A stretch of DNA of 64,000 nucleotides from Cyanidioschyzon merolae (taxonomy: Eukaryota): NCBI GenBank assembly GCA_000091205.1, contig AP006494.2; one strand, given 5' to 3'. The translations under genes and the position numbers were made by a program. The stretch's first letter is position 1, and every line of letters starts with the position of its first letter. This document shows positions 22,693-56,170 of the stretch, piece after piece. The notes beneath the pieces are model-generated. The model was not told the origin of the DNA. It ran no database searches and saw nothing but the letters and a program-made list of their open reading frames with translations.

Positions 22693-22751
22693 GACAGTAT
22701 CTACGTGCGCTTTACGTACACTGCACCGCCGCGGACACCATCAACGCCGTT

Positions 22752-32999: not shown

Positions 33000-34001
33000 G
33001 TACTGATTACGCTGCTTCCGGCTGTTTCTTTCGTCTGTCATGCACAAGCGAAATTGCCGTCTCCGCTTCGCTTGCCATTTTCGCCTTCATTGGATGCAGC
33101 CAATGTGCGCCCTTAACAACGTTAATATGTGATGATGCTCATATGTTCCCAAATGTCCACCATATCTTGTATTCAAAGCCCTGCTCTGTAGCGAATGAAT
33201 GCTTGCCTCACAGCTCGGTACTTGCCCTTAACGGGCACAGAAGGTACCCCTCGATGTATCCTACAGTTACTTCGCCCGGTGCCGCACCATAAGATCATGG
33301 ACTTTGTCGTCACAATGATTTCGGTTAGTACTCTGTCCGTTAGCATCGAAAGTGGACGCTGTTCAATTCGATAGAATATTCGTATAATATGAAATTGTCC
33401 ATGATGAGAAAAGCACAAGAAGGAGAATATAGACTCGAGATCAAGCCGAGCAATTTCCATGGGTCTACGCTCCCTTCCTGCAGAGTGGTGACGTGCTTTC
33501 TTCCAGAAGCGATCGTTTTAGGGACGAAAGTCAGCGTCCAAGACACTTTGCCACCCAAATAGAAGTCAAAAGAGCCTGTGCGAGCGATTCCTGTTGCATG
33601 TACCAGCTCCTGTCGCATGCCGAGTCGTCTACGGCTACAAGGAGAATCGGATTTGTCATTCGTGCGGCATCGATTATTTGACGTGAGCAGTTCAGTGAAG
33701 TTTCGGCAGGAGGTTTTGAACAAGTATGAAAGACTCGTCGTGCATTTTCTTCCTTCGCCAAGCCAGAGGCGCGAATTACTGCGCCCACAAGTTGCCTTGA
33801 AACAGAAAGATCGAGTACATGGACAATGCGTGATTTTAGCGTGCTAAACGTAAAAAGAAAAGGAGAGTGGACGCTCGCGCAAATGAAATGGATAATGATG
33901 GCGGTTATTTTACTTACACCTGCTCGACGGTACAGCGAACCATATTCATTCCGATGATGATCCGATTTCAGCAGCCAAGAGTCGAAGAATTTATTCCGCA
34001 C
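33000..34001 (-). pseudogene. 5-prime-truncated Fanzor/TnpB-like fragment, subfamily 2
   Basis: ORF pieces 33531-34001, 33340-33723 and 33173-33460, plus a downstream frame reading 'GTYEHHHILTLLRAHIGC'. 'VKGKYRAVRQAF' and 'TYEHHH' parallel 'TRTYKECARRF…TSYTHHELG' of the 22.7-25.2 kb copy. 'LLGLISSLYSPSCAFLIMDNFILYEYSIELNSVHF' is homologous to 46.8 kb 'SLDLFSSLYLPSVACFVMEEIAFRDAYFEWSNALF'. Confidence 0.5.
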
Positions 34002-34380
34002 AGACGACCGAGAATCCTCAACCTACACATGAATTTGTAATCCCTTATTGCCGTTCTCTGAACGGCGACGCTGTACACCTAAAAAGGTACCGGCAAAAAC
34101 TCGAAAGATCCGAGCAGTCCGAGCAGTTGAGGAATCCATTCTAATCGGGCCTGAGAGCGGAGTGCTATGTGGAAAGGCTTTTCCAGCGTGCGCGACATTG
34201 CATTCTAGGAGATTCACAGATGATGGTGCATCAATATCCTCTGAGACTCTTTAGAGTGGTGTTTAGCATTCCGCGCGGGGACGTATACGCGATATAGCCA
34301 GCAGAGAGGCGCCAACTGCTCGCTCCGGACTCAGTGGAACCAAACCGTTTCACGAGCATGATGGGCGAATTGATATCCAC

Positions 34381-35770
34381 CCGCAGACGCCTCCTAGCCC
34401 TTTCGACCCGCCCACTGATATCGGCTCCAGCTCTTTCCTGGACGATTCGGGTCAAACAAGCTGCTCCACGAAGTTGGATCGCTTCAGCACCTCGCCTCTC
34501 GCCTTCAGCACAACATATCGTCTGGTATAGACAGCAGCGCTATACTTTCGGTTCACAAATTCCATGCCTTTATTTCCTCTGGATGGACTCACGTATGCAA
34601 GGAGTCCTCGCTCTCGTGCCCTCAGTGCCATTCGTCGTTCTGTCAGCTCTCGGTACTTTTCTGTCGCCGAAGCGCTCCGCCGCCTTATTTCCAGCTCGAC
34701 TGTCTGAAATGGACGTCCCAGCTCATTCCTGACCTTTTCAAAATGAGCACACCTCTTCGTGTCCCTCGGTGACAACCCTCCCAGAGGAACACGTACTTGC
34801 GGGCGAAAGACGACATGCGCCCCGATGTGTCACTGTGTGCTGAACGCTGCACCGATTCGCCCAGTGGAGCGATCGTTACGTTTCGCGATAGAAATCACTC
34901 CTTGGATGAGGTTGAACCACGGGCGCTACGGATGAATGGGAAGCAGGCCTAGACCTACAGAATCGGCAACGGCTCGAACGCAAACGGAATGGTGAAATAC
35001 CACATCGTCCACTCTGAGAACGTTGCAAGACGTGAAGGAATAGCCTTCGATGGTTTGACAAGGTGGTTGGTGCTGTTGTATGCAACCTCTCTACGAGCGA
35101 AAGCGAGGCAGCCTGTTGAGTCCGCGGCAGCAAGATTAGATGATGATGATGACGTCGCTCTCCTCGAGCTCGATCAAACATACTGCAGGACCCCGCCGCG
35201 AATATCCATGTCGGCTCCGACGGTTTCGTCTCAAGGAGGTCACATCGACTGAAAGAACAAACCGCGGTGTCCCTGTACTTTTTTTTACCGATCGCAGCGT
35301 TCCAGGAACTTTATCGTTGCGATTTCAGTGGAACATGTCCGTGACTAGACCAGCACTCTGTTTTGGCGATTGTTTCCCGGTCTTTTCAGAATCACACGAA
35401 CCAGCTGTTGAGAAACGGAGACGCCCCTGGTGTCTACTGTCTTCGCTTTTGCTCTCCGTACGCTGATCAACGGGTCGATTTTCTACCTGTGACCGCTAAT
35501 TGCCTTTGAGAAAATCGGTGATTGGCGCGGAGCACACGTACTTGTTTCTTTCAGTGTGCCGCAACCGTCTGAGCACTGTGGTATGACTGATCTGAACGAT
35601 GAATGCAGTCCTCCTTGCACTGTTCAGTAAAGAACATATCCGAGAGGAAATCCGTCCACGATCCATGCAGTACAATGCATCGTGATTTCGATGTCCTGCT
35701 ATACAGTCCTAACAAGCATTCGATTCCACGCAGCGGGGGGTTGGAACAGAACTGAGTTGAGAAGTAGAAA
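34381..35770. repeat. Segmental duplication A, copy 1 (about 1.39 kb; near-identical copy at 41928-43300); carries small conserved ORFs and the 200-bp dispersed module at its 3-prime end
   Basis: The ORF-track proteins are identical between copies (e.g. 'MSPRDTKRCAHFEKVRNELGRPFQTVELEIRRR…' at 34452-34775 and 41995-42318). The DNA aligns end to end, with only a few differences (an extra T-run at 35277-35286 and a few substitutions). Confidence 0.9.
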
Positions 35771-36681
35771 CAGTCCGCCACTGCGCAGACAGAGGCTTCT
35801 GTCAATTCGCAATAGTACTACTATAAGTTGTATTCGCGATGGCAGCGAATTCTTCTTCCGACACGCGCGGAACACGAACTGCGGCTTGTCGTCGAGCATT
35901 AGATGGGTAACCGGGCTTCTGCCCTGTCGCTTAGAAACACTTGTTAAGATTTCTAGGAATATCGCGGACGCGCTCGTCATGTACGACCCGAGAGGCCTCG
36001 CAAAGCCACGCGACAGAGCGAGATTTGCCGCTCGCCACGATGCCTCGTTCCATTATTCGCACCAGAGATAGCTTTACGTTCGATGTTTTGCCCGGTTTAG
36101 AAGACTTTGACAAGGTCGGAGACAAACGTGTGGCAGAACTGAATACTCGTGACGAGCGAAGGCTTTGCCACTGTAAAAGATACCCCTTGTTTGGTATGCG
36201 TGTCCTTTAACCATCGCTTTCCAACAATATCGACGCACGATTGGCCCTTGCCCCGGAGACTGAAGCTCATTGGCGATCAGCTGGCGGGGGATACGCTTGG
36301 GAATTCGCTCGAGAGTGGAAAATGTTGAATAGAAACTGCGCGATTCGGAATCATGATCTCGAGATCTTCAATGACTGCCATCAGCGATCTATCTCTTTGC
36401 TTTGAAGAAAGCCCTGTAAAAAGATAGGGCGGCAGAGATGAGGTACTTGTAGACAATGAATCCCCGATTCATCACGTATTGGCTGCGACATAAATTGACA
36501 CAGGTCATTCAGTCTGTTGATCTACAAGCCCGTCAAAGGAGGATGCCGACATGTGAAAGCGTTTTCGTAAATTCTAATGGGCCAAGGCAAATTTTGCGCA
36601 AAGGCATGAGCGCATCTCATGAATGAGCATATAAGCTAGTGCATTCGCACATAGAGCTATTGAATACCTGCAGCGTCGCAT

Positions 36682-37476
36682 TTAGACCGCCATGCTGCGT
36701 CTCAGGGAAGCAAGTTCATCCTCGTTTGCTTGAGGTGCATGAGACCGTCCGGAAGCTGCTTCCCCAGCTACTGTGGAACGCGGTAGCGGATCACGTGGTA
36801 CAGGTGGCGCGCGTGTTGCCAGTTCCATTTCAGGAGACCACTTCGATTCACCAAGCCAAGGCGCATTCCTAGAGGATTCCTCCACAGGTTCTTCATGATC
36901 CTGGAGATACACGGGAACGGAACCTTTTTCTGTACGCATCATTTGGTCCTGTGCCATTTCCGACTCGAGGGAGTCAAGCTCAGCTAAAAGCTCCACATCG
37001 TCAAATTCGGCGTCAACGTGGTAGGAACGTCCGAGAACCTCTTGCACCTCGTCTGTATCCTGAAGCACGTCTGCAAGCTCATATGCAGCGTCCTCAAGAC
37101 GGTCCACGTTCGTATGTTTGAGCTGCTTTGCAAGCTGCTTCCGCGAGACTCGCATTTGCTGCTCAGACTCTCGCGCCATACGGAGGTTTTCGTTCGCAAA
37201 CTGTACCTGATCCATTGTTAGCGTTTGGTTTGTGTAGACCCCCATTTGGTTTTCGAGCATTTTCCGATGTTTCAAGCAGAGCAGGGCGCGTGCTTCGGCC
37301 GTGCGGTAGGCAGCGCTTCCCTTTGGTGCCGTCCGCATCTGCTGCCGACAACGAAAGAGCTCCTTCTCTATCGTCTCCAGCTTGCCTCGAACCAGCTCGC
37401 TGCGGCTATTCAGACGACTCTGGTATTCCTCTTGTGTTATAGGAGGTGCCTTCTTTTTCCAGAACATATCGAACAA
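36682..37476 (-). CDS. CHMP5: ESCRT-III subunit CHMP5 / Vps60 (Snf7 family)
   Basis: 264 aa. 'EVQEVLGRSYHVDAEFDDVELLAELDSLESEMAQD' versus human CHMP5 '[34 protein letters not shown]'. The N-terminal basic coiled coil matches across its full length. Confidence 0.85.
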   Translation of the reverse strand: MFDMFWKKKAPPITQEEYQSRLNSRSELVRGKLETIEKELFRCRQQMRTAPKGSAAYRTAEARALLCLKHRKMLENQMGVYTNQTLTMDQVQFANENLRMARESEQQMRVSRKQLAKQLKHTNVDRLEDAAYELADVLQDTDEVQEVLGRSYHVDAEFDDVELLAELDSLESEMAQDQMMRTEKGSVPVYLQDHEEPVEESSRNAPWLGESKWSPEMELATRAPPVPRDPLPRSTVAGEAASGRSHAPQANEDELASLRRSMAV

Positions 37477-37722
37477 TGTTTGTTACCGCCGAGAGTATAA
37501 GCGACAAGTGCTACTGCTGTCGAGCTGAAGGCAGAAGTGCGCGCACGCGTGCGTGTCTCGGCTATGCGGCCAAAACAGACAGCACCTGAGATCTGTAACG
37601 TGCCGTGCGCAATCCGCATAAATCACTCGTGAGGCAGTTTCCTGTTCACTATCACGGGTGTGATCCATTTTTTCGGTACAGTTGGAGTGCATCTTGCTTC
37701 ACGATACCATGCAGCAGTGACA

Positions 37723-37762
37723 GTGATGATGATGATCATGATGATGATGATGATGATGATGA
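37723..37762. repeat. (GATGAT)n / (ATG)n microsatellite
   Basis: gtgatgatgatgatcatgatgatgatgatgatgatgaa is seen directly. Confidence 0.9.
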
Positions 37763-37879
37763 ATTCCCATGAACCTCCGGTGATGATTCTCGGTAAAAAT
37801 GCTCGACGTCTTCCTAGCAATGCAAGCTGTGTTCATGTATATCCTTTCACCTGAATTGTGTGCCAGCTCTAAGCTCATG

Positions 37880-38400
37880 TCATTAAATGCTTGCTCGCAC
37901 TTTTTAGCAGATGCGTTCGATATACGTTCATTTCTACGAAAAGAAACTGTAACGGAAAGATAAGAATACGGATCTCAGGGATTTCAATTGGTCGCTATTG
38001 CCGATTGCCTGAGAAAACAAAAAAATCCTGTCCTTGCCGACCATCGAGCGACGGGGAGCATTTTACGACGACTACGGAGAAGAAAAGGGGGCATATGCCA
38101 GATGAGATGTTCGTCCCACGGGATGATGACGAGCCTGTCGTTGCACAGAGGCTGCGAGCTCGGAGAATCCCTGCATTGATGAGCACCATCAGCGTCAATA
38201 CAGGCAACAAGCTCATGAACGGAAACCTCAATGCCCCCATCAGTATCAAAAGATATGCGGTGCCGAAGACGAGACCATCGGAGCTGACTCGCGCAAACTT
38301 TGTAAGGCAGCATCCCAGGCTCGAAGTGTGCAGGGGGAGGCTGAAACCGACGATAGGGAACCGGTCGCAAAAAGGCTGGGAGGCGTATGCGAGCGGTCGT
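37880..38400 (+). mobile_element. 3-prime-terminal remnant of Fanzor/TnpB-like element (about 110 aa C-terminal RuvC-III region plus about 200 bp upstream), subfamily 1; paralogous to 45480-46000
   Basis: 'RRIPALMSTISVNTGNKLMNGNLNAPISIKRYAVPKTRPSELTRANFVRQHPRLEV' parallels 'RGLLALISTTNDGKKRMELVNRDLNAAINIRRCAMLENRPPYLPRANFIGQPLKVEL' of the 22.7 kb copy. About 93% DNA identity to 45688-45998, with weaker similarity upstream. Confidence 0.55.
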
Positions 38401-38451
38401 ATAAATGTTTACCCTTCCTTGTCGACGAACGTTTTCGTTTTGAGATCATAC

Positions 38452-40121
38452 TCATATTGACTATTTCGACACCAGTATCACTCATGAATCGCTCAGCAAA
38501 ATCATACGCGTTTTCTACAGATATGGCGCATCAACCGTCCGGGAGTGCTGAACAGCACCACGCCTGTCCCGCCTCTGGATGAGAATCATTCAATCACGCC
38601 ACGCATGACAGCCGATTCTTCCCAAGTCTGATTCGCCAGCGCTCGGGGACAACGCTCACACGGTATGCTGAACGATTTTCACATAGTTTCGCGCGACCCA
38701 AGCCTGCTGGACGCTTCGGCAGCTCGGCACATCTCCGGATGCTGATAAAGGCGTTGATGTCTCAGAGCAGCAAAAAAGGATCGCACGCATCGCTCCCGGC
38801 AGAAGAATCAATCCGTCACAGTCCGATCGCCTCGCACTGCGGCGTCTGCCATAGTCTGGTAAACTCGGCTTGCCCCGTTTCGGGCACCCAGCTCACTTCT
38901 ATGCTCGTCTTTACTCCCTGTTCCAGCGTGCACCAGTGCTCGTGGTGCGCGTGCGTCATCCTAAACGCGTCGATGGATACCGCACAGAACCGAGACATGC
39001 ACTCACACTGCGCTCTCGTCCACAGGGCACGAGTGCGGCCTCTGCACACAACAGCACATCCAGCGCTATAGGAAGCACCGAAGTGACGCGCATGATCGGT
39101 CGCTTCCATTTCGAGCGCACTGCACGAGCAGCTGAATACACGCTGCGTGCCGCCGTACAAAAGCGTCGTGGACGACGCGAGCGCGGTCCCAGGTACGCCC
39201 GCCACCGGTCTCCCGCATGTGGGACTCGGGCCTGCACTGGCTCTCCGAATGAAGCCTACAAAGCGTGACCCCCGCCTTGATACGGTGCGGGGCGCATCGA
39301 GACGCGCGCTGGCGCCTTCGTGACGCTGGCTCGTAGGCCCTCTGGCACACGTATTGCCCAGCCGCACATAGCACCGAGCACTGGAATCGCTGCGCAGCTT
39401 GATATGCGTTCTGTGCAGGTCTTTGGATACGTCCCGTCGATGTGGAAGCACCGCGACGGCCACGAGTGCCTTCGGTGTGAGACCCATGCGCATGCCAAAG
39501 GCTCTCTCTCCAACCACGATGAACGCTTCGCCGCGAGTCTCGCTGCTCGATTCAGGGCTCAGACTGGCAATATGCACGTAGACTGGTATTCCGTCGGTCT
39601 CCATGGTACCAGGAACCTGCTTTCCGTTTCCTCACTGTGAGCAGGCAACCCTGAACATGCTTCGTTCGTGCTCTTAGCAGCGTTGTCCACAGAGACCAGC
39701 GGTCGCTCTCTGCGCAGACTATGCAGTACACTGCAAGATTGTCGACCGCGACGCAGAGGAACTCTCGGCGACGCATATGGTGGCTGTCCCAGGTGGTCGC
39801 TAGAGGAGGCTGGGGCGCTCGCATTCGGAGAGCAAGGGCGCTTTTCTCTCGCGGAACCTGTTCATGCTGAGGCTGTAGCACAAGGTGCGAGGAGGGCACG
39901 TACCACGTTTCAACCAACCCGTGGGTACGATGTCCGTCGGTATCAGGCTGCCAGCAATACGATGAGCTTTGAGGATCGGGATCGACTTGTGCGCTCTCAG
40001 TGACGTTTCCTCGGAACTCGCGACCACCTCGATCGCTTTCGGCACCAGAAGCTCCTCATTGACCTTCTTCGATATGCGAAGCATTCTCTCCATGTGTCCC
40101 GACTTTTCTCAACCAGGAACC
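38452..40121. repeat. Segmental duplication B, copy 1 (about 1.67 kb; near-identical copy at 50086-51759); contains conserved minus-strand ORFs (40093-39800 and 39604-38816) of unknown function
   Basis: The ORF-track proteins are identical between the copies ('METDGIPVYVHIASLSPESSSETRGEAFIVVGERAFGMRMGLTPKALVAVAVL…' and 'MERMLRISKKVNEELLVPKAIEVVASSEETSLRAHKSIPILKAHRIAG…'). Only single-residue differences are seen (e.g. RLGNTCARGPTSQR versus RRGNTCARGPTSQH). Confidence 0.9.
38816..40093 (-). CDS. Hypothetical protein encoded within duplication B (possibly two exons: 40093-39800 and 39604-38816); second copy at 50448-51725
   Basis: The ORFs are conserved intact in both copies of the duplication. 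No confident family assignment; a faint resemblance to Iojap/RsfS-like or other small alpha/beta folds is not supportable. Confidence 0.25.
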
Positions 40122-40816
40122 TGAGGGTTTATCGCGCCGGCTGCGCGTTGCTTCTATTGCATATTTGCTCGATGGACACGCTGCTGGTGTCTTTTTGCGG
40201 CAATACCAAGGTGAAACAGTCATATAATTCAGCGCGGGATCCAACACAAAATTCTTCTACTTTTTACGCCGGTCTGATCGCACCGTGTGCTACAGGCAAG
40301 AGCGGAACGCTCTAACAGACGAAAGCTTATGGATGATTCCGGGTCCTCTACATACATACGCCTGCTTTATGTCGCGCAAAACCAGTGCCCAACCATTGAA
40401 TGGGCTACAAACTCACGCAAGTCGCTGCTGTGAGCGCTTCCGTGTTAGAGTTTCACCATTGAATTCCGAGGCTTCTCTCTATCGCATACAATGTCACGAA
40501 GAACAGATCGTTTAATTTGCCTTTGCCAAACCTGCTCGTGTTCTTCCATACCAAGTCATTCTGCGGGATCGACATCAGGGCCATGCCTCCAAAGCAGCAG
40601 TTCTTTGACGATCTGGCAGAGCACAGTCCCAAAAGCCACCTTCGCGGGGACTGCATGCGCAACTATAGCATCCACTGGGCGCCAAGCGTTGCACCATTCG
40701 CAGAACACGCCAACAAAACCCCGCGCGAGCTGTCCAGTACCCGGCGTGACTGATCTGATGACAATCTCCTGCTTGCTTCCCGTGAAACGAAGGGATCCGC
40801 ACTGTCGGCCGCTCAT

Positions 40817-41695
40817 CTACTGTGCCTTACCTTCGATGACGCGATCAATCAGACCATACTCGACGGCCTCCTGCGCTGACATGAAATTGTCTCTGCTCAT
40901 ATCCCGGATCAGTTTTTCGTACGGTTGTCCAGTCATCTTCGAGTATTCGTACGTAAGTGCATCTCGAATGCGCAAAATCTGCTCTGCCTCAACTTTGAGG
41001 TCTGACGCCTGCCCTTGCGCTCCGCCGAGCGGTTGGTGAATCATGACCCGAGAGTGCGGCAGGGCAAAACGCTTGCCCTTCTCCCCGGCAGCAAGCAGAA
41101 AGCTCGACATAGACGCAGCAAGGCCAACGTTTATTGTCACGACCTCGGACTTGATATGTCGCATCGTGTCGTACACTGCAAGACCCGCTACTACGGAGCC
41201 TCCGGGTGAGTTGATGTAGAGATAGATAGGCTTTGTATTGTCCTCGGAGTCAAGATAGAGCATCACGGCGATAATTTGGTTCGCAAGCTCGTCGTCTAAC
41301 TCGCTCCCTAGAAAAATGATACGTTCTCGGTACATACGGTTGTAAATATCCACCCACTCAGCCTGAGTTCCTCCCGGAACACGAAAAGCGACTTTCGGCA
41401 CTCCGACTGGCATCATGTAGATCCGGGCGCTGGAACTGCGACTTTCCCGAACACGGAAAGTCCGCTTCGCACAACTCCGTTCACCTCCGTGCAAGAAGCT
41501 CCGATTATGCCAGCCTTCATAACCGCTTTGACGACCACCATACTTCCCCACGAACGGCGGGGTCGCGAAACCTAGAGAAGTCATTCCGTGTGCGTGCTTC
41601 CGTGAACAACCCACACGAACAAACGCTGCCAAATGCTTTATCCCCACAGCTCGTGGATCTTTCACACCCTCCTCGCCAGCAGCATGATATGACAT
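40817..41695 (-). CDS. clpP: ATP-dependent Clp protease proteolytic subunit ClpP with long N-terminal (organelle-targeting-like) extension
   Basis: '[102 protein letters not shown]' matches the ClpP core, including the catalytic Ser (GLAASM) and His (MIHQP) contexts. Confidence 0.9.
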
Positions 41696-41927
41696 TCGGG
41701 GAGTGCATCAACGTGCGGCGGCGGCGGTAGCGGCGGCAGCGGCGGTGTCATTACAGAGCGCAGCGCCCATCACTGCGATTGCGTGTGAGCGATGGTGCCC
41801 TAAAGAGATCGCTGTGCACTGTTTCGGTCATCATCCCTGATGCCTCTGTGTCGATGTTTTCTCGTAGATGTCAGCAAAACGATAGACGCTTGACAGCCAT
41901 AGAGGGTATATGTATCTACTCGCATGC

Positions 41928-43300
41928 AGACGCCTCCTAGCCCTTTCGACCCGCCCACTGATATCGGCTCCAGCTCTTTCCTGGACGATTCGGGTCAAAC
42001 AAGCTGCTCCACGAAGTTGGATCGCTTCAGCACCTCGCCTCTCGCCTTCAGCACAACATATCGTCTGGTATAGACAGCAGCGCTATACTTTCGGTTCACA
42101 AATTCCATGCCTTTATTTCCTCTGGATGGACTCACGTATGCAAGGAGTCCTCGCTCTCGTGCCCTCAGTGCCATTCGTCGTTCTGTCAGCTCTCGGTACT
42201 TTTCTGTCGCCGAAGCGCTCCGCCGCCTTATTTCCAGCTCGACTGTCTGAAATGGACGTCCCAGCTCATTCCTGACCTTTTCAAAATGAGCACACCTCTT
42301 CGTGTCCCTCGGTGACAACCCTCCCAGAGGAACACGTACTTGCGGGCGAAAGACGACATGCGCCCCGATGTGTCACTGTGTGCTGAACGCTGCACCGATT
42401 CGCCCAGTGGAGCGATCGTTACGTTTCGCGATAGAAATCACTCCTTGGATGAGGTTGAACCACGGGCGCTACGGATGAATGGGAAGCAGGCCTAGACCTA
42501 CAGAATCGGCAACGGCTCGAACGCAAACGGAATGGTGAAATACCACATCGTCCACTCTGAGAACGTTGCAAGACGTGAAGGAATAGCCTTCGATGGTTTG
42601 ACAAGGTGGTTGGTGCTGTTGTATGCAACCTCTCTACGAGCGAAAGCGAGGCTGCCGGTTGAGTCCGCGGCAGCAAGATTAGATGATGATGATGACGTCG
42701 CTCTCCTCGAGCTCGATCAAACATACTGCAGGACCCCGCCGCGAATATCCATGTCGGCTCCGACGGTTTCGTCTCAAGGAGGTCACATCGACTGAAAGAA
42801 CAAACCGCGGTGTCCCTGTACCTTTTACCGATCGCAGCGTCCCAGGAACTTTATCGTTGCGATTTCAGTGGAACATGTCCGTGACTAGACCAGCACTCTG
42901 TTTTGGCGATTGTTTCCCGGTCTTTTCAGAATCACACGAACCAGCTGTTGAGAAACGGAGACGCCCCTGGTGTCTACTGTCTTCGCTTTTGCTCTCCGTA
43001 CGCTGATCAACGGGTCGATTTTCTACCTGTGACCGCTAATTGCCTTTGAGAAAATCGGTGATTGGCGCGGAGCACACGTACTTGTTTCTTTCAGTGTGCC
43101 GCAACCGTCTGAGCACTGTGGTATGACTGATCTGAACGATGAATGCAGTCCTCCTTGCACTGTTCAGTAAAGAACATATCCGAGAGGAAATCCGTCCACG
43201 ATCCATGCAGTACAATGCATCGTGATTTCGATGTCCTGCTATACAGTCCTAACAAGCATTCGATTCCACGCAGCGGCGGGCTGGAACAGAACTGAGTTGA
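41928..43300. repeat. Segmental duplication A, copy 2
   Basis: See copy 1. Lies between the ClpP and DEAD-box helicase genes. Confidence 0.9.
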
Positions 43301-43647
43301 AAGACTATAACCGCGGATCGGGTCGCGCGGTCTGTACTTCGGCCTGAACTGCAAAGTTCTGGAGGCACGACTAACAATATTGCTGTTCTACATACTTTGA
43401 TCAGCAAGTTCCTCGTTTTACTTGGAAAGGCCATCGATTGGCAACCACAGCGGGCAGGACGACAGCCAAACGAACATTTCAACAAACGATATAGTACAGA
43501 ACTCCGTCCAGCTCTGGCTCACGTTACCTGGTCAACGAACACTACGGCCGTAACCAGGAAAGGTACGGTCTGAACTTGTGAAGCAAGCGACGCAGTGTTC
43601 GGCGGGCGCTTTGAGCTTATTGGGAGCTTGGGCACAGCACCTGCATT

Positions 43648-45432
43648 GTGTACCAGAGCCGTGATAACTCTGGACTGCCAACCGTGCGCCGCAGCCTAGA
43701 TACGCGCTCCCAGAGAAGTAGGTGCCAAATCATGACTTGGGCTTTTCTCGGTTTCCTGGCACCCCTGCCGGCTTGGAGGTGCGATCATCATAAGACGATA
43801 GGTGCTGGCAGCTGCAATTCGTTGCATACGGGGGGCGCTCACTGTTCCAGGCTGCGCCGTGCGGCCCTTGTGCGGGTACCAGGTCTCATAAATCCTGCTC
43901 CGTCTCTGTGGTATGCTAAGCGGCGCAGCTGCCGGCGCAGTGAGAGGTCAGCGCCTCTGAATCTGACATCCTCATTCGCCTCCCTGGGTGTTTTCCCGGA
44001 ACTCGTTACAGCACTCGATGCGGTGGGCATCCAGACCCCAACTGCCATTCAGACCCGCGCCGTTCCTGCGATTCTCGGAGGAGCCAGCGTTATCATCGGA
44101 TCTGCGACAGGTTCAGGCAAGACCCTTGCCTACTTGCTCCCAATAGTACAAAGACTCAAAAGCGAAGAACAGCAGGTCGTCTCGGAAATGCAGACAGAGG
44201 AAGCGGCTGAAATGATGCGGCGTGGGCGGCATCCCCTGCGCAGACCAGGTGCACCGCGAGCGTTAGTCATTACGCCGACTCGAGAGCTTGCAGAGCAAGT
44301 GCTTGGAGTCTGCAAGCACCTATCGCACTATATCAAAATTCGTGCGGCTTCGGGTCTGGGCGTCCGTCGCATAGTTCGCGCGCAGTTGGAAGAGCAGCCT
44401 GTCGACATCCTGATCACGACAAGTGGACGTCTACTGCAGCTCCTGGACGAGCAACTCATTCGACTGCGATCTGTGCAAACTGTCGTTCTCGACGAAGTAG
44501 ATACACTGCTGCTGGATGAGGGAGGATTCCACGACGATATTCGACAAATCATGGGAAAAGCCCGCAATACGCAGCAGTTCATCGCCGTCGGAGCGACGCA
44601 CCCCACTGCAGCGCAGAAGCTCTACAGAGAGTTCTGTCCAGGTGCAAAACCCATCACTGTGGATCTCCACCAGACACCATCGAACCTGCGTCAGAGGTTT
44701 ATTCGTGTGAGCGGTGCGAACGGCAAGACCGATGAAATCCTCGCGCTTCTCAAGGAGGAGACTCATAAGAAAACCCGTTTGCTCTCCGGAGGACGAGTTA
44801 TGGTGTTCTGCAATACGGTCGACAGTTGTAGATTTCTGGACTATTTTCTGCAGGAGCACGGCTTCACTACAGCGAATTACCATGGTGACATCCCGAAAGA
44901 CAGGCGCGAAGAAGAATTTCAAGCTTTTGTACGAGGCGAACGGCAGATTCTCGTTTGCACTGACATTGCGGCACGGGGACTCGACTACGACCACAAGATA
45001 GATCAAGTGATACTCTTCGATTTTCCGCGCACTGCCATAGACTACTTGCATCGGGCCGGGCGCACCGCTCGGGGTCCCTCGGGAACCGGCACCGTTACCT
45101 CTCTCGTAACAAAAAAAGATTTGCCACTAGCGAGCTTCATTGAGGACGCAACTCGCATCGTAGGTGTAGACCTCGTGCAGTACTGCGAGACCAAAATGCG
45201 TGAAGCCGTGAAACGAGACGAAAAACCCACGAACGTGAACGCGTCCAACGCGCCCCGCTCCGGTACTCGCCCTGGATCACGTACACGTCCTGGACCTGGT
45301 GCACGTCCTGGACCTGGTGCACGTCCTGGGCCTGGTGCACGTCCTGGACCTGGTGCACGTTCTGGACCTGGTGCACGTCCTGGACCTGGTGCACGTCCTG
45401 GGCCTGGTGCACGTTCTGGGCCGCCAAAGTGA
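43648..45432 (+). CDS. DEAD-box ATP-dependent RNA helicase (organellar-type N-terminal extension) with C-terminal (PGPGAR)n low-complexity tail
   Basis: Q motif '[14 protein letters not shown]'. Motif I '[15 protein letters not shown]'. Motif Ia 'PTRELAEQ'. Motif II 'VLDEVD'. Motif III 'GAT'. Motif VI 'HRAGRTARG'. The tail, encoded 45271-45424, is an 18-bp tandem repeat cctggacctggtgcacgt. The true start codon is uncertain (the ORF track starts at 43648). Confidence 0.85.
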
Positions 45433-45479
45433 ACTCGTGGACCGCTAACTGCCGTTTACCTCTACTAGACTCGACCCCC

Positions 45480-46000
45480 AGGTGCGTGTCATCAAATGCA
45501 TTTTCGCCATTTACAGCAGATGTGTTCGAAGTGCGTTCATTTTGTAGAAAGAAAAGGCCATGAGATAGGTATGGACGTTGTAGTCGGGAATCCTGGAGGA
45601 CCGTCATCGCCCGGTTCGACATAAATGCGAAAATATCCCCTTTTCGCCAACCATCAAGCGAAGAAGCGCAAATGAAGAAGCTGAAGAGGGGCAATATGCC
45701 AGAAAAGATGTTTGTCCCACGGGACGATGACGAGCCTGTCGTTGCACAGAGGCTGCGAGCTCGGAGAATCCCTGCATTGATGAGCACCACCAGCGTCAAT
45801 ACAGGCAACAAGCTCATGAACGGAAACCTCAACGCCCCCATCAAAATCAGAAGATACGCGGTGCTGAAGACGAGACCAGCGGAGCTGACTCGCGCAAACT
45901 TTGCAGGGCAGCATCCCAGGCTCGAAGTGTGCAAGGGGAGGCTGAAACCGACGGTAGGGGGCCGGTCGCAAAAAGGCTGGGAGGCGGCGTCTGCGGATAG
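45480..46000 (+). mobile_element. 3-prime-terminal remnant of Fanzor/TnpB-like element, subfamily 1 (paralogue of 37880-38400)
   Basis: 'MPEKMFVPRDDDEPVVAQRLRARRIPALMSTTSVNTGNKLMNGNLNAPIKIRRYAVLKTRPAELTRANFAGQHPRLEV'. Lies immediately downstream of the helicase gene. Confidence 0.55.
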
Positions 46001-46217
46001 ATATTAATTTGCACTCCATGGTCGTGCAGCTCTTTTGCATCACTGACTTGTGGTGTGTCTTAGGGTACAGTGATTCCCGCTTCTTCATGGGCACCACCGG
46101 CGTCAACAGTCGATGTTTGCTGCGCGAGCGTCAGGCACGATGCGTGGTTAGAATAAAATGGAACTCTGAACAGAGCGCTCTGTTCCGTCGTTGACCTTTT
46201 TTCCTAAACGTTTTTAG

Positions 46218-47370
46218 TTGCGCAGCCTCGGCATTCAAAGTGCAGCAATAGGAAATCGGGGATTCATACGTAGCTTTAAGATGCTCCGACGTCTCGGTGG
46301 AACGGCTTTTTCTCCTCTGTTAAACTGTCATTTCTTCGGTCGTTGGAATCAAGATGATCCACGACGCCTGTTAAGAAGGGTCCGCAAATTGCCCGATATC
46401 ATTATCGACTTCATTCCAAAAAGCTTCCGGTGCTCTCCTTTCCGCACGTATACTATGCTCAAATCCGGAAATCTTCTATTTATCTATGTTTCTGTTTCAG
46501 GGCAGGTCATATGCGTGGCAATTTGCGCCGCTAGATAGACGACGAAAGAGTCAAAGTCGCTTCTCGATGAGTATTTTGACAAGCTTATGCCGAAGGTTTT
46601 CTGAACGTCTCACGACAAATAAACGATCTCAGCCGGATGAGGACTCGTCCTCTTTATGTGGACATAGAACAAACTGCATTCCGTAACAACGTGATATCTT
46701 TCACGAGATATGTTCCTGGGGGCTCTCGTATTTTCTCTCTGCATCAGAAAGGGTCAAGGACTCGGATTTGCATCCTCGCGGCAACCGCTTTTCGTGGAAA
46801 TTCCGTCACCTGTTTGTACGGAGGGAGCGTAGACGAATCGAAATCTCTCGACTTGTTCTCCAGCTTATATCTGCCTTCCGTTGCGTGTTTCGTAATGGAG
46901 GAAATCGCGTTCCGAGACGCTTATTTCGAATGGAGCAATGCACTATTCCGTGCGTAGCGGACAGAGGACTCGTCGAGGGGATCACCTTCAAGAAGCCCGT
47001 TATCATTGGGTACGACATCGGGCGCGGAAACCGAGAAGGTCCTGGCAAGTAGCGCTTCATAGCTGCCATTGGCATACACCGAGCATTGAAGTGGGCCTTC
47101 TGGCATGAAAGGGCAACGCTCAAAACAGGAGAAGCGATGGATGTCCGGGAATGCCTGACCAGAGTCATATCCTGCCGTTGGAAAGGGCACGTCAAGGCAG
47201 CGCACAAAGATGATGGAAATATGAGGTGTAGGGTAAATCACATCTGCCGTCTGCGCATGAAATACGTCGACAACAGCTGGAAGCAGCTAACTCGGGACTG
47301 CAACGCAGCCATCAACATCATTCGGCTGTCGATAACCCAGCTGGAGGGAAACGAGAGACCGACGTATTGA
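46218..47370 (+). pseudogene. 5-prime-truncated Fanzor/TnpB-like fragment, subfamily 2, frameshifted
   Basis: 'KKPVIIGYDIGRGN' at the RuvC-II position. 'CRVNHICRLRMKYVDNSWKQLTRDCNAAINIIRL' at RuvC-III. The upstream ORFs are homologous to the 27 kb and 33 kb fragments. Confidence 0.55.
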
Positions 47371-47695
47371 ACGCCGGATATAACAAAGAGGAAATGAAGC
47401 AGTCTCTGATAAAAGCTGAAAAGGCTGATGTTGGTGACAGTGGGTATGGACTCAAACTTGAGATTGCACGCACGAGTTAGGAAAGTGGACCCGTTCCATT
47501 TTATTCTGGCAAGGATGTAGACAGCTTCGCGCATTATACTTCCAGCGAGATACTGACAAGGCAATGCGGACTACAGGCGACCAGAGCCGCAACCACGCGC
47601 GTCGCGAATACCGCGGGGACTCACTGGCATATAACAAATAGGACAAGGACGCATTTACACATGAGAGAGTGTGCTTCGTTCTGTGCTTGCCGCTT

Positions 47696-49699
47696 TTAAG
47701 CCTTGAAACGACGGCGAGCAAGCGGTCGAATGGGATCCATACCGCGCGTCTGATCAAAGCGTCGTAGCTCGAGGGCACGTTTCGCGTAGGTGTCGGCACG
47801 TTCCTGATTACAGCGACGTCGTTCGAATGCAGCCCATGAATTCCAGATGGCTGGATCCTTGGGAGAAGCGTTCACCGCTCGCGCGTAGTAGTGTTGAGCG
47901 AGGTCGTCGTTACCGAGATCGGCCTCAAACCGCGCGTATGAAGCCCAAAGCCACCCAGCTGAGCGGTCAACTTTGAGGCCACGCTCAAAAAGATTGCGCG
48001 CACTTGTAACGTCACCGCATTTCCATTCCATCAAGGCCCAGCTGTGATACAGAGAAGCAGTGTCTATTGGGTATCGACTCTCACTGTTGGCTGCACTGCA
48101 GCGTTCGATCCCCCTCGAGTAGATGTTGCGAGCAGCGTCTATGCGCATGTCGGCCTGCTCTACCAAACCCAGATACTGGTAGGCGTAGGGGTATCCATCG
48201 TCCACCTCGATAGCCCGGGACAGCAGATTCCGTGCAGTCTTCAGATTTCCCAGACGAAGTTCGAGTTTTGCATATTCGCAATGAAGACGAACATCGCTCG
48301 GGAAGCGTGCCACTGCCTCTGCGTAAACGCGTCTCGCGCTGCGTAAGTTCTTGCACTTTTCTTCGAGGCGTGCATAGGCCTGCCACAGCGCAACGGGGCC
48401 ACCGACGCCGTCAAGCTGGATGTTACTGGGCTGCGGTCGAGCTCGTGCCTCAGCGAGGCCCTTGATGTAGGCTTGTCTCGCCGCACTAATATTACCGAGG
48501 TATTCCTCCATTTGTGCGAGCGAGAGATACGCCTGCATAAACGAGGGATCTGCCGAGATTGCCTTGAGGAACGAAGCCCTTGCCTTGGCCGGATTTCCCT
48601 GCTTAAACTCGAGAACACCTACTGCGTGTAGCAGATGTACATTCTCGTGCTCATTTTCCAGGGCTTTGTCTAAGAGGTTGCGCGCGAACTTGCTCCGTCC
48701 ATATTTGTCTTCAAGGACAGCGAGCGATCTCAGGAGGCGAGTGGAGCTCGGGTCGAGGCGAAGTCCCCGAACGAGCAATTCGTATGCCCGTTGGACGTTG
48801 CCCAGTTCATCCTCCATCATCGCCCAGGAGTTGTATGCAGAGAGAAATTTCGGTTCAACCTCCAGGGTCTGTGCGAAAAGCTTTCGAGCGCGTTCCCAGT
48901 TCCGTAACAACTTTTCGAGGTCTGCTAGGGCCTGGATCAGAAAAGGGTTACCAGGATTGGACTGAATACCTCTGCGAAGCGTATTTCGAGCCTGATCAAA
49001 GTGACGCTGACGCTCCCAGCCACGTGCGAGAAGCATCCAAACCTTCCCTTCTGACGGGCACAGAACAAGCGCTTGTTCATAGCGTGCTACAGCGACCTGC
49101 CAGTGACCAGATCGTTCCGCTGCCAGAGCCTCGCTGACGAGCCGACTCGATTCCAGCTTCCTCGCGACGGTTATACTTTCCCTTGATGGCGCAACAGGCT
49201 GCAGCGTTAACTCCGCTCGCACGAGTGGCTGAGAGCTGGCCGCGGGTCCCGCTTCACCGCTAGCGTCCAAGTCGGGGTGCGCCGCGTCGTTCACCGCTGT
49301 GACGGGACCAGCGGCAAGCAACAGGGAACTGCGCCGGCAGAAACGCCCCAAAATAGGGAAACTAATCTTTCGCCGACACGTTCGAGGAACACAGGAAGCA
49401 GGTGTGAAACCGTTTTCCCCGCCCAGCCCCAGTGCCTTCGACTGCCAGTGTGGACAGCTCCCCTGCCCCGCATCTCGACGTACTAGAGCGTTTATAAAGC
49501 CAAGAGACGAGCTGCTTCGAGAAAAATTCGCATTATCTAGACTACTTGACCGCCCCAAGAATTGGTGCTCGGCAAGAGACATAACGCGTCGCTTCCTCTG
49601 CCTGAAGAGCGAGTTTCGTACCCTGACCTCCAACGACAATAGACGCTTACAGTCAATCCGCTTGGACGCGATTCTACGTTTGTCCACCATATTGTCCAT
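47696..49699 (-). CDS. HAT (half-a-TPR) repeat protein resembling chloroplast RNA-stability/processing factors HCF107 / Mbb1
   Basis: More than ten tandem HAT/TPR-like repeats are present, e.g. 'WMLLARGWERQRHFDQARNTLRRGIQSNPGNPFLIQALADLE', 'LLHAVGVLEFKQGNPAKARASFLKAISADPSFMQAYLSLAQME' and 'WNSWAAFERRRCNQERADTYAKRALE'. The N-terminal approximately 170 aa are non-repeat and presequence-like. The start codon is uncertain. Confidence 0.7.
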   Translation of the reverse strand: MDNMVDKRRIASKRIDCKRLLSLEVRVRNSLFRQRKRRVMSLAEHQFLGRSSSLDNANFSRSSSSLGFINALVRRDAGQGSCPHWQSKALGLGGENGFTPASCVPRTCRRKISFPILGRFCRRSSLLLAAGPVTAVNDAAHPDLDASGEAGPAASSQPLVRAELTLQPVAPSRESITVARKLESSRLVSEALAAERSGHWQVAVARYEQALVLCPSEGKVWMLLARGWERQRHFDQARNTLRRGIQSNPGNPFLIQALADLEKLLRNWERARKLFAQTLEVEPKFLSAYNSWAMMEDELGNVQRAYELLVRGLRLDPSSTRLLRSLAVLEDKYGRSKFARNLLDKALENEHENVHLLHAVGVLEFKQGNPAKARASFLKAISADPSFMQAYLSLAQMEEYLGNISAARQAYIKGLAEARARPQPSNIQLDGVGGPVALWQAYARLEEKCKNLRSARRVYAEAVARFPSDVRLHCEYAKLELRLGNLKTARNLLSRAIEVDDGYPYAYQYLGLVEQADMRIDAARNIYSRGIERCSAANSESRYPIDTASLYHSWALMEWKCGDVTSARNLFERGLKVDRSAGWLWASYARFEADLGNDDLAQHYYARAVNASPKDPAIWNSWAAFERRRCNQERADTYAKRALELRRFDQTRGMDPIRPLARRRFKA

Positions 49700-50085
49700 T
49701 TCATGCCTATTTATCCATCATTTTTCTGGTGATCGGCTAGCGCGCGCCCCCTATGGCATAGCGATCAGAGCAGGTCGCCGCCACTGCCGCCTCCAGCGTG
49801 ATGCAGGCAGCCGCATCACAGCTGCGACTGGAGCATCACCTAAGAATATCAGCAGTGCTGCATTCCCAACTGCGTACACGGAAACGAAGCGACGGTCACC
49901 AATAGTATGCTTGTACACACGATTCGAAGAGGACCACTGCTACAGTCCAATCCAGAGATTGTTCGAGAAGCTGAGAAACAGGCTTTTAAGAAACGTCATA
50001 GGATATTGTGCACCGCTGACGCCCTTAGTGCCCCATTGTAGGTGAGAGCGCCGGTCATGAGCCAGAAAGGATCGTATGCTCTCTA

Positions 50086-51759
50086 ATATTGACTATTTCG
50101 ACACCAGTATCACTCATGAATCGCTCAGCAAAATCATACGCGTTTTCTACAGATATGGCGCATCAACCGTCCGGGAGTGCTGAACAGCACCACGCCTGTC
50201 CCGCCTCTGGATGAGAATCATTCAATCACGCCACGCATGACAGCCGATTCTTCCCAAGTCTGATTCGCCAGCGCTCGGGGACAACGCTCACACGGTATGC
50301 TGAACGATTTTCACATAGTTTCGCGCGACCCAAGCCTGCTGGACGCTTCGGCAGCTCGGCACATCTCCGGATGCTGATAAAGGCGTTGATGTCTCAGAGC
50401 AGCAAAAAAGGATCGCACGCATCGCTCCCGGCAGAAGAATCAATCCGTCACAGTCCGATCGCCTCGCACTGCGGCGTCTGCCATAGTCTGGTAAACTCGG
50501 CTTGCCCCGTTTCGGGCACCCAGCTCACTTCTATGCTCGTCTTTACTCCCTGTTCCAGCGTGCACCAGTGCTCGTGGTGCGCGTGCGTCATCCTAAACGC
50601 GTCGATGGATACCGCACAGAACCGAGACATGCACTCACACTGCGCTCTCGTCCACAGGGCACGAGTGCGGCCTCTGCACACAACAGCACATCCAGCGCTA
50701 TAGGAAGCACCGAAGTGACGCGCATGATCGGTCGCTTCCATTTCGAGCGCACTGCACGAGCAGCTGAATACACGCTGCGTGCCGCCGTACAAAAGCGTCG
50801 TGGACGACGCGAGCGCGGTCCCAGGTACGCCCGCCACCGGTCTCCCGCATGTGGGACTCGGGCCTGCACTGGCTCTCCGAATGAAGCCTACAAAGCGTGA
50901 CCCCCGCCTTGATACGGTGCGGGGCGCATCGAGACGCGCGCTGGCGCCTTCGTGATGCTGGCTCGTAGGCCCTCTGGCACACGTATTGCCCCGCCGCACA
51001 TAGCACCGAGCACTGGAATCGCTGCGCAGCTTGATATGCGTTCTGTGCAGGTCTTTGGATACGTCCCGTCGATGTGGAAGCACCGCGACGGCCACGAGTG
51101 CCTTCGGTGTGAGACCCATGCGCATGCCAAAGGCTCTCTCTCCAACCACGATGAACGCTTCGCCGCGAGTCTCGCTGCTCGATTCAGGGCTCAGACTGGC
51201 AATATGCACGTAGACTGGTATTCCGTCGGTCTCCATGGTACCAGGAACCTGCTTTCCGTTTCCTCACTGTGAGCAGGCAACCCTGAACATGCTTCGTTCG
51301 TGCTCTTAGCAGCGTTGTCCACAGAGACCAGCGGTCGCTCTCTGCGCAGACTATGCAGTACACTGCAAGATTGTCGACCGCGACGCAGAGGAACTCTCGG
51401 CGACGCATATGGTGGCTGTCCCAGGTGGTCGCTAGAGGAGGCTGGGGCGCTCGCATTCGGAGAGCAAGGGCGCTTTTCTCTCGCGGAACCTGTTCATGCT
51501 GAGGCTGTAGCACAAGGTGCGAGGAGGGCACGTACCACGTTTCGACCAACCCGTGGGTACGATGTCCGTCGGTATCAGGCTGCCAGCAATACGATGAGCT
51601 TTGAGGATCGGGATCGACTTGTGCGCTCTCAGTGACGTTTCCTCGGAACTCGCGACCACCTCGATCGCTTTCGGCACCAGAAGCTCCTCATTGACCTTCT
51701 TCGATATGCGAAGCATTCTCTCCATGTGTCCCGACTTTTCTCAACCAGGAACCTGAGGG
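50086..51759. repeat. Segmental duplication B, copy 2
   Basis: See copy 1. The minus-strand ORFs 50448-51236 and 51432-51725 are identical in sequence to those of copy 1, apart from two or three residues. Confidence 0.9.
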
Positions 51760-53525
51760 TCCAACGTCCACGGAGCGCTCCATTTTGACCTTGTCCCGCG
51801 CACGGTTTCGGTTTTCGAGGTTGGTCTGATATTTCTGGGCACGTGCGCTGTAGGTTTTTTTCGATCGCCGACGAGGCATGGCGACGCATGAACATCGACC
51901 GGACAACATGTATGAACAAATCGCGGGTTTGACAGTCAGGCCGTGTTGCATCTTCAGCCACACGCGCCAGTTGCGATGTCGCATGAGAGTTTGACTGAAA
52001 AGCTCTAGTGGAATGTGGATTTCCAGCAGCAGTGCTTCTGGAGCTCCCCAAAAGACACTTGATTTGCGAATTTTGTTCACGCGGGGGAGGCCAGGTAAGC
52101 CTTCTTCGAATGCGAAGCATTTCGAGCCCCGATGGCGCCCTGAATTTTATACTTTGGAAGATTCTCGCAGTTGAAGTTTTATCGTGGGGAGACGCAGAGC
52201 ACGATTTCAGATTTATGTTTCTCCCCCGAACGCTTCCCCTTCACGCTGCTCGTTCTCCTCTGTTCAAGCGGATCTTCCTCTTCTTGCAAGTCGGTATCGT
52301 TTCCCATATTTGACCCTGGGGATACCATGCATAAGGTCGCTATGATCTTCAGCCGTTCCTGTCTTCGGGATTCAGACGCACCTGATGGACGGTGGCACAG
52401 TGGCGCGTCTCTTCTATACATGTATCTGCTATTCCTTACGTACCTTTCCGTCACTGTCTCGGTTGCAGGCGCACCAGCGCAGCGATGCACGCCTCCCTAC
52501 TCCATCCCGCGCACAAACAGTGGAGAACCATGGCAGATCAGCGCTGGCGAAGTTAGGGCATGTCTTAGCGAAGAGCGGTGCCATGAATGTCAACCGCTGG
52601 TCCATTGCTCCATGAGCGAAAACGCGGCGTATAACAGCAGCGAACAGAAATTTTTCTGGATTGAGCGCGGGACCACAGACTGATATGAAGCGGTACTCAA
52701 CTCGAAGCTCAGTCGCGTGCTCTTTTGACGCCTTAGAGCAACGAAAAGCGACGGTGTCTAAAACGAGTATATGCTGCTGGACCATTCTGTCTGTTTGCAT
52801 ACCTGTAGGCAACGAGACGCCTGGATCGCAACCAGGGCTGATGTTTTCTTGATGATCACTAGCGTCTTCTTCACGAACACCGGATTTCCCGCCTTCGAGT
52901 TCCCAAATTCGGGTCTTCCATTTCTCCCGAATGAAGTTTCATCGAGTGAGACGATCGCAGTTCGTTCCTGTGGTCCAAGTTCGCGTTTCTTTACGAAACA
53001 CACAGTGCGTTATTGAACACGCGAAGATCTCCCACAGATACATGCTGTTTTCTTTGTCCAGCTGTTTCTTTCCATCAACATTCTTATCAATGGTACCGAA
53101 AATGTCCAACCTGTGGTTGCAGTGGCAGCATTTCCTAGCATACCTATGGAGTGGCGCAAATTTTCTAAGCGACATCCACGTAGGTAGAGCCTGCGAATAT
53201 CTGGTTTGGCTGCACGACGTTAATAACAAATACTTGAAGACGAGCTGTTCATCAATATTTTAACCGTAGAATGACGATCGTATAGTAGCAAGGCCGTATT
53301 TTGAAAGCTAGACGTGACAAGCCTCCCTCTTTCCATGGCCTTTTTCCAGTGCGCAGGCTACAAACTTCGTCGCGCCGCTTGCACCCGGGCGCAACTAGCG
53401 AGCGGCAGGAACGCGCTCTACACATATTCCCAATCTCGTGGAGCACTGGTGTTCGTTCGTCTGAAAAACCTGCAGTTTCTGTGTACGCACGTGCGCCATT
53501 GTGCCCACTCGCTCGATAGACATAA

Positions 53526-55699: not shown

Positions 55700-56170
55700 C
55701 ACAGTGTTTAGTAGAACGATGAACATGCTACGACCACGCAGGGTAAATTGATGTTCAGACGCAGACGCCTCCCCATCTTTTACGACCGGCCACTGGTATC
55801 AGCTTCTGCTTCTCCTTGCGCAATTCGAGCCTAAGAGGTTTCCCCATAAAGTTCGCTCTTTCCAGCTCCGCGGGTCTCATATTCAGTACTGTACATCGTC
55901 TGACAATGACGGCGGCGTTGAGGTTTCGGTTCAGGAACTTTATGTGTTTCTTACATCTATTAGAGCTCTTCATTGCAAGGAGTTCTCGAACTCGTGCCCT
56001 CTGTGCCAGCAAAGTCTCGTCATCATCCTGGCCGGGAAACACCTTTTTTCTCGCCTATCTCCCATCTTCGTCTCCTTCTTCGTCGTAACATACGCTTCTT
56101 CGCTCTATGGTCGGCGAGAGGAGGATACTATTCGTTTGTTTTCCGGCAGCCGGCGATGATGATCCTCTAG
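55700..56170 (-). mobile_element. 3-prime-terminal remnant of Fanzor/TnpB-like element, subfamily 1
   Basis: ORF 55755-56042: 'LLAQRARVRELLAMKSSNRCKKHIKFLNRNLNAAVIVRRCTVLNMRPAELERANFMGKPLRLEL' parallels the C-terminus of the 22.7 kb copy. Confidence 0.55.

Follow-up and report, generated by a model that had tools for sequence, protein, structure and literature searches.

Genes and repeat units of the window

The stretch of DNA analyzed here (the window) comprises 64,000 nt of chromosome 12 (859,119 bp) of Cyanidioschyzon merolae 10D and carries four genes, encoding CHMP5/Snf7, ClpP, DEAD-box helicase, and HAT/TPR "Mbb1-like" proteins, whose spacers hold pairs of repeated units (Table 1). These units, here named A, B, and c38/c45, descend from transposable elements of the Fanzor1 type, recur in wild strains, and have exchanged variants between copies. 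A preliminary description of the region had named the same four genes, and its labels were confirmed by Pfam; the window's open reading frames (ORFs) contain the 10D proteins BAM80758, BAM80759, and BAM80761, as well as eIF-5B (BAM80756) and MutS (BAM80766), exactly. The BAM accessions run consecutively, and thus no annotated protein lies inside A or B. Exact look-up of the helicase and B ORFs returned no record.

Self-BLAST of the window showed that the two copies of unit A (1378 bp) are 99.35% identical, with six mismatches and one 3-bp indel, while those of unit B (1678 bp) are 99.76% identical, with four mismatches. Both pairs are direct repeats, as had been described at an identity of at least 99% and with coordinates that were off by a few bases only. 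That description listed two duplications; a third pair, in which 38082-38385 corresponds to 45683-45986 (304 bp, 93% identical), is colinear with the A and B pairs. The copies lie 7543 bp (A), 7601 bp (c38/c45), and 11632 bp (B) apart, and the order A (minus), c (plus), B (minus) occurs twice between 34383 and 51760. At all four edges of A and B the identity falls off sharply. No terminal inverted repeats were found at A or B, as had been noted before, and no target-site duplications were found at their edges. Helitron-like termini for B were ruled out by the edge sequences. A megablast search of the whole region against a phage database gave no match, nor did Rfam and tRNA scans of the window.

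A related cyanidiophyte is represented by a metagenome contig of 65.8 kb, which clarifies the context of these repeats and is colinear with the window at 70-80% nucleotide identity in genes. This outgroup contig carries ORC5, L30, eIF-5B, CHMP5, ClpP, helicase, HAT, and FeS-assembly genes in that order with short spacers, and neither tblastx nor sensitive blastn detected any sequence in it similar to A, B, or the spacers of the window. It follows that the window has kept the ancestral gene order and that the repeats occupy expanded spacers. This bears directly on the proposal that a single ancestral tandem duplication of A, c, B, and the genes was followed by reciprocal loss of the redundant genes. 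Such a duplication would account for the colinear, same-orientation series A-c-B / A-c-B, which has a chance of about 1/120 under independent events. However, since the outgroup has CHMP5, ClpP, helicase, and HAT in the same order and unduplicated, it would also need a rearranged ancestor that restored this order by chance. The spacings are unequal as well (7.5 kb for A and c versus 11.6 kb for B), the genes are single copy, and no gene remnants are present in the spacers. We rejected this explanation on outgroup synteny and regard it as highly improbable, in agreement with the earlier view of the repeats as short dispersed units rather than one tandem duplication.

Table 1. Coordinates of repeat units, element remnants, and genes between the repeats
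Feature	Position	Strand	Remarks
A1 (unit A, copy 1)	34383..35760	-	CMe-1 homology on left, c5/c63 family on right
A2 (unit A, copy 2)	41926..43300	-	in divergent ClpP/helicase spacer
B1 (unit B, copy 1)	38451..40128	-	CMe-1 residues ~218-698 = 40030-38681, tblastn E 1e-18
B2 (unit B, copy 2)	50083..51760	-	~500 bp upstream of HAT/Mbb1-like gene; CMe-1 residues 358-698 = 51296-50313, E 2e-17
c22	22765..25452	-	near-full-length CMe-1A copy (consensus 671-3145, 82-90% nt); in-window family reference
c38	38025..38441	+	3' remnant of mini CMe-1-type element; 38082-38385 93% to c45; diverged ~55-nt tail
c45	45471..46040	+	internally deleted mini CMe-1A (consensus 811-946 joined to 2864-3079) plus tail; partner of c38
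c55	55730..56289	-	mini CMe-1A derivative structured like c45; from consensus mapping
Fz2 fragment, frameshifted	33176..34022	-	directly downstream of A1 tail; colinear homology to 45987-47500 and 26400-28000
Fz2 fragment	46375..47367	+	"TRDCNAAINI" RuvC-III-like motif; colinear homology
Fz2 copy	26572-27608	-	family has no DNA match to CMe-1A
CHMP5/Snf7 gene (CML153C, BAM80758)	36682..37467	-	Pfam; single copy, intact
ClpP gene (BAM80759)	40817..41584	-	Pfam; single copy, intact
DEAD-box helicase gene	43732..45432	+	Pfam; single copy
HAT/TPR "Mbb1-like" gene (BAM80761)	47696..49582	-	Pfam; single copy, intact

Fanzor1 ancestry of the repeat units

CMe-1A is a 3.2-kb Fanzor1 element present in about 150 copies in C. 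merolae and is the only Fanzor family listed for this species by Bao and Jurka (2013, PMC3627910); like TE-N2_CMe, it has neither terminal inverted repeats nor target-site duplications (PMC3627910). The WSV486-like 3.2-kb interspersed element reported in 253 copies by Nozaki et al. (2007, PMC1955436) is the same element, and some copies have been reported to be intact and transcribed (PMC3627910, PMC1955436). Mapping the CMe-1A consensus and the CMe-1 protein from the supplement of PMC3627910 on the window, by nucleotide comparison and tblastn, revealed homology in the left part of A, in B, in c38, and in c45, which supports the earlier association of the units with Fanzor-transposon debris. 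Nucleotide identity to the consensus is 82-90% for c22, 72% for the left part of A, and 68-73% for c38, c45, and c55. Inspection by eye indicates that the c22 Fanzor1 ORF retains the D, E, and RD motifs, the catalytic signature of the group being D...[TS][TS]..zinc finger..RD (Bao and Jurka, PMC3627910), with a frame break near the C-terminus. An array of four 75-bp repeats (23713-24015) expands the acidic linker region of this ORF. Pfam found no match in c22, and a phmmer search of its ORF against PDB sequences found no Fanzor match; a word-indexed homology search with the c38 ORF returned near-identical matches only.

The 3' ends of the CMe-type copies all carry the conserved block GGAGGCGTCTGC followed by a diverged tail of about 55 nt. 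On either side, the 93% block shared by c38 and c45 gives way to older and more diverged homology of the family, and the identity of A1/A2 ends exactly at the same 12-mer, near the Fanzor stop codon, as does that of c38/c45. Whereas c22 is near-full-length, c38, c45, c55, and the left part of A are 3' or internally deleted derivatives, and A, c38, and c45 retain C-terminal fragments only. A, B, c38, and c45 are relics rather than functional members of Fanzor1. They resemble CMe-1A in the absence of terminal inverted repeats and target-site duplications but differ from it in other respects: typical members are about 80% identical to the consensus, which makes the near-identical A and B pairs untypical; A is a composite joined with an unrelated repeat family; and B is dead, 5'-truncated, and without a DNA match to the consensus.

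Unit A is a composite in which two recognizable parts flank an unassigned middle. Its left ~390 bp encode a Fanzor1 C-terminus (CMe-1 residues 600-723, minus strand, 46% amino acid identity, E 3e-18), and its right ~470 bp correspond to the end portion of another repeat family, termed c5/c63, whose terminus lies at most about 10 bp from the right edge of A. Pfam found no match in six-frame translations of the unit. The c5/c63 family, about 71% identical between copies, is found at 5386-5796 (plus), 63800-64000 (reverse complement), 35290-35760, and 42830-43300; its common terminus "...GAGTTGAAAG" faces the 5' end of the next gene in three of the four copies. At A1, family homology runs across the left edge into 33000-34382, and the element tail is followed by an Fz2 fragment, an arrangement with which the sequence on the downstream side of c45 is colinear. 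This places A1 in its native composite context, and A1 is thus the native, donor-like copy. The outer left flank of A2 (~41870-41925) is also a diverged element tail, resembling the c45 tail (z 4.8) and the c38 tail (z 3.3) but not the A1 tail. Compared directly, the outer flanks of the two A copies showed no similarity. The preliminary description had suggested that A might be a mobile unit; A is not a discrete element, however, since its left edge falls within an older element, the diverged tail of which extends beyond it at both copies. The position of this edge and of both c38/c45 edges within older homology is typical of conversion tracts between old paralogs.

Unit B is more diverged, and its Fanzor homology was detected by tblastn with the published CMe-1 protein, Pfam on the window ORFs having given no match there. 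The homology follows a single minus-strand frame with at least nine in-frame stops and 24-27% amino acid identity to CMe-1. The RuvC-I D and RuvC-II E residues are substituted, and of the catalytic motifs GADPG has become GLTP, VDEFRTS has become IDAFRMT, and NRD has become L*D, while the landmark motifs "ETDG..VH", "IDAFRMTHAHHE..CTL", and "DINAFISIRRC" are still recognizable. By these features B is a 5'-truncated, dead pseudogene of a very divergent Fanzor1 lineage, either much older than CMe-1A or separate from it. The two-part ORF that had been described as conserved in B is indeed open in both copies (262 amino acids, minus strand), but it is the longest stop-free stretch of this pseudogene and its variants, two synonymous and seven nonsynonymous, match the neutral expectation, so that it does not represent a conserved gene. 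No homologs below 97% identity were found for it in a word-indexed database of 5.8e9 protein clusters. The left edge of B1 lies near the 3' end of its element, tail-to-tail with the 3' end of c38 and 10 bp from it, consistent with the earlier remark that B1 abuts a Fanzor remnant; at the DNA level the B 3' end does not match the other element 3' ends. Outside its edges the flanks of B are unrelated at both copies, with no homology between them, and B therefore appears to have once been inserted as a discrete segment. The B pseudo-protein also has a weak match at 15335-15505 (plus; 33% over 57 amino acids, E 0.003), near ORC5, which may be another Fanzor relic or a chance match. In a more diverged wild strain (~97-98% identical; contig L019), about 60 bp are deleted at B positions 268-329 (window 38718-38779), and the same contig also has a ClpP-B-HAT-side junction.

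A further set of fragments, Fz2, appears to represent a second TnpB-like family, as suggested by the "TRDCNAAINI" motif and by sub-threshold matches of three of ten distant relatives to PF07282, the TnpB/Cas12f TNB zinc ribbon (E 4e-4 to 6e-3). The Fz2 fragments themselves gave no Pfam match, their match to CMe-1 is marginal (E 0.2), and a word-indexed search with an Fz2 piece returned near-identical sequences only. In two places Fz2 immediately follows a mini-CMe tail, at the same relative position, and the two together look like an ancient composite or nested-insertion unit.

Several features of the surrounding genes and spacers are recorded here. The eIF-5B to CHMP5 interval measures about 14 kb in the window (22700-36680) versus 1.1 kb in the outgroup (L030:12470-13604) and is a large lineage-specific insertion carrying a host gene: it holds CMe-1A and Fz2 relics, a SET/His_Phos gene (27986-32073), and A1. 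Upstream of CHMP5 there is a (TGA)13 microsatellite (37724-37762), and many wild contigs stop within about 150 bp of it. The C-terminus of the helicase contains a polymorphic tandem array (18 bp x 7.6, 45284-45419), at which wild helicases are six amino acids shorter.

Wild strains and exchange between copies

Metagenome contigs of wild strains (L numbers), 0.3-0.6% diverged from 10D, contain all eight unit/flank junctions of A and B with identical edges, and therefore both copies of each unit pre-date the split between 10D and the wild strains. Both copies are present in all wild strains sampled, with no empty site seen for either unit. Among the contigs read, each unit occurs in only two contexts, both within 12 kb, and all B-ORF contigs read map there. 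These observations are at odds with the recent duplication and very recent movement proposed in the preliminary description.

The same contigs bear on the possibility that the repeats were collapsed or mis-joined in the reference, a concern given that more than 20 kb of the first C. merolae assembly was mis-assembled at near-identical repeats (PMC1955436). The window, however, matches the finished 10D sequence, A1 and A2 differ at specific sites, as do B1 and B2, and independent wild assemblies reproduce every junction, some of their contigs following the order of the window through B1 (L041), through A1 (L020-24 and L026-28), or from B2 to A2 (L011). Many independent contigs end at these very edges or run across them, which settles the doubt raised earlier about the junctions, and we give an assembly artifact almost no credence.

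Variants have been exchanged between the copies. At sites 923, 1144, and 1237 of B, both 10D copies carry A/T/C while every wild copy, in both flank contexts, carries G/C/T; the 10D paralogs thus share differences relative to their wild orthologs. In A, contigs L022 and L028 carry the A2-type indel within an A1 context, and wild haplotypes mix A1- and A2-type variants, although the indel could also reflect assembly mosaicism. In L041, which is colinear with the window, six consecutive c45-type alleles (38303-38360) lie inside c38, with c38-type alleles on both sides and the c38 tail following. The identity shared at the edges of this patch extends over only about 25 bp, below the usual assembly k-mers. 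The L041 tract, with donor-type alleles flanked by recipient-type sequence, the shared B sites, and the mixed A haplotypes are direct evidence of non-allelic gene conversion. Since the B copies share sites and L041 holds a conversion tract, the near-identity of the copies reflects concerted evolution and not recent movement; of the two causes previously offered for it, gene conversion stands and recent movement does not.

Some wild contigs also traverse the repeats in other arrangements. The window can be written X-A-s1-B-s2-A-s3-B-Y, in which s1 is CHMP5 plus c38, s2 is ClpP, and s3 is the helicase, c45, Fz2, and HAT. Traversals of this type are X-A-s1 in L020-24 and L026-28, s3-B-Y in L013, L015, and L016, and s1-B-s2 in L041. 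Other contigs read s3-B-s2 (L001, L019, L031, and L032), s1-B-Y (L014 and L017), s2-A-s1 (L025), or X-A-s3 (L029), and together supply all four junctions of the isomer X-A-s3-B-s2-A-s1-B-Y. Each of these non-window traversals of A or B uses only boundary k-mers that are also present in the reference arrangement; because their boundary sequences all exist in the reference, they are possibly assembler paths through perfect repeats. They hint at repeat-mediated rearrangement but are suggestive only. A different junction occurs in a single contig, L012, where the c38 core is joined to the c45 tail (CHMP5-c-Fz2-HAT) and the two share identity over only about 25 bp at the point of the switch. Being novel sequence, this junction is probably a real recombinant.

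Two contigs from different assemblers (L031:1-576 and L034:1-558) carry an identical 570-bp sequence joined at about 41580, the ClpP start codon, in place of the sequence upstream of ClpP that holds A2 in 10D. This sequence has a GC content of 46% and a 168-amino-acid "Destabilase"-like ORF, which is a singleton absent from the 10D proteome. Contigs L032, L033, L035, and L037 break nearby but at different points (41509-41647).

Origin and maintenance of the repeats

We consider it probable, though well short of certain, that A, B, and c38/c45 are low-copy repeats formed from Fanzor1 relics before 10D and the wild strains separated and since kept near-identical by gene conversion. In this reading the four conserved genes kept their ancestral order while their spacers filled with decayed Fanzor1-type remnants, and the repeats were built on the 3' parts of three distinct Fanzor1 lineages that have long been dead. 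A second copy of each already existed when 10D split from the wild strains sampled here, and non-allelic gene conversion across 7.5-11.6 kb has since kept A and B nearly identical. The original copying may have been an act of host repair, through ectopic templated repair or recombination, which for A would have taken place between pre-existing paralogous relics, and the A, B, and c repeats may occasionally mediate crossover rearrangements. Efficient homologous recombination between direct repeats has been reported in C. merolae (PMC13353863), and the paper that finished the 10D genome described 13 former assembly gaps as 99.4-100% identical to other regions (PMC1955436).

Several observations weigh against this interpretation. 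Purely random repair does not predict that three repeat edges should fall together at Fanzor 3' ends. The clean edges of B, with no flank homology, leave its first duplication unexplained by conversion between paralogs. The shared order and orientation of the three pairs fits no tested model. The CMe-1A family itself lacks terminal inverted repeats and target-site duplications, so their absence from A and B is no argument against transposition, or at most weak evidence against it. Finally, the wild "alleles" were read from metagenome contigs, in which strains may be mixed.

Two candidates remain for the origin of the second copies, host ectopic repair or trans-mobilization of relics, and B is especially ambiguous between them. 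Under the second, A and/or B would be non-autonomous elements moved by the CMe-1A/Fanzor1 machinery in local, fairly recent hops. All units do derive from Fanzor1 elements, the lack of terminal repeats and target-site duplications is shared with CMe-1A and TE-N2_CMe, and intact, transcribed CMe-1A copies have been reported. B moreover has discrete edges between unrelated flanks, its left edge lying near the predicted 3' end of the element, and the right edge of A is about 10 bp from the terminus of a repeat family. Against this, only two contexts per unit, both within 12 kb, are found among the contigs read, every wild strain sampled is fixed for both copies with no empty site seen, the left edge of A is internal to the element and the tail was not co-copied, B is 5'-truncated and catalytically dead, and the demonstrated conversion already accounts for the near-identity. 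We think trans-mobilization unlikely. Both origins had been offered in the preliminary description, and the exchange between copies favors ectopic recombination or gene conversion over mobilization of non-autonomous elements.

TnpB and Fanzor guide RNAs are encoded at the 3' end of the element and target the adjacent flank. Intact CMe-1A ribonucleoproteins might accordingly cut beside element 3' ends, with ectopic repair of the breaks both creating and homogenizing the repeats. The identity of A1/A2 and of c38/c45 ends at GGAGGCGTCTGC, the 3' ends of B1 and c38 face each other 10 bp apart, and the crossover in L012 falls at the same block, all of which this explanation would accommodate. Yet the local relics are dead, and folding six of the 3' ends together gave a weak consensus (-9.7 kcal/mol) with a positive covariation term, thus showing neither covariation support nor a conserved RNA structure. 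The 12-mer is also the last well-conserved stretch before the fast-diverging tail, where conversion tracts would be expected to end in any case. Guided breaks are in our judgment very improbable as the source of the repeats. A broader proposal, which we hold to be quite doubtful, is that Fanzor1 3' ends are recombination hot spots at which breaks, either guide-RNA-directed or end-specific, lead to ectopic repair that copies and homogenizes relics and yields isomers, proposed to be alternative CHMP5-ClpP-helicase-HAT orders, segregating in hot-spring populations. Fanzor-induced breaks at element 3' ends are an attractive but unsupported driver.

The retention of TnpB/IS605-type transposons with the aid of guide RNAs amounts to "homing" after excision. 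The locus described here is similar in that repeat edges cluster at Fanzor 3' ends, the guide-RNA site in active relatives. It differs in having no intact nuclease at these loci and no conserved RNA fold, and in that the events copy to ectopic sites rather than restore a donor site.

A parallel for repeats maintained by conversion is provided, in yeast and animals, by segmental duplications and by transposon copies dispersed in the genome, which evolve in concert by non-allelic gene conversion with occasional non-allelic homologous recombination. As in those systems, paralogs at this locus are closer to each other within a genome than orthologs are between strains, a short conversion tract has parental flanks, identity blocks lie within older homology, and direct repeats are candidate substrates for rearrangement. 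Unlike those systems, the units here measure 1.4-1.7 kb and lie 7.5-11.6 kb apart in a compact, 16.5-Mb haploid genome, and crossover products are candidates only.

Our findings overturn nothing in the current understanding of C. merolae, but they indicate that near-identity at the A/B locus is not readable as recent transposition. C. merolae 10D is the reference "minimal" eukaryote for gene targeting by homologous recombination, and even a genome this compact contains relic repeats of kilobase scale under concerted evolution. The very divergent, dead B lineage extends the Fanzor1 record beyond the single family catalogued in 2013, as would the putative Fz2 family. If the non-reference junctions are confirmed, this locus would offer a natural setting, in a haploid alga, for studying the rearrangements that repeats mediate near essential genes.

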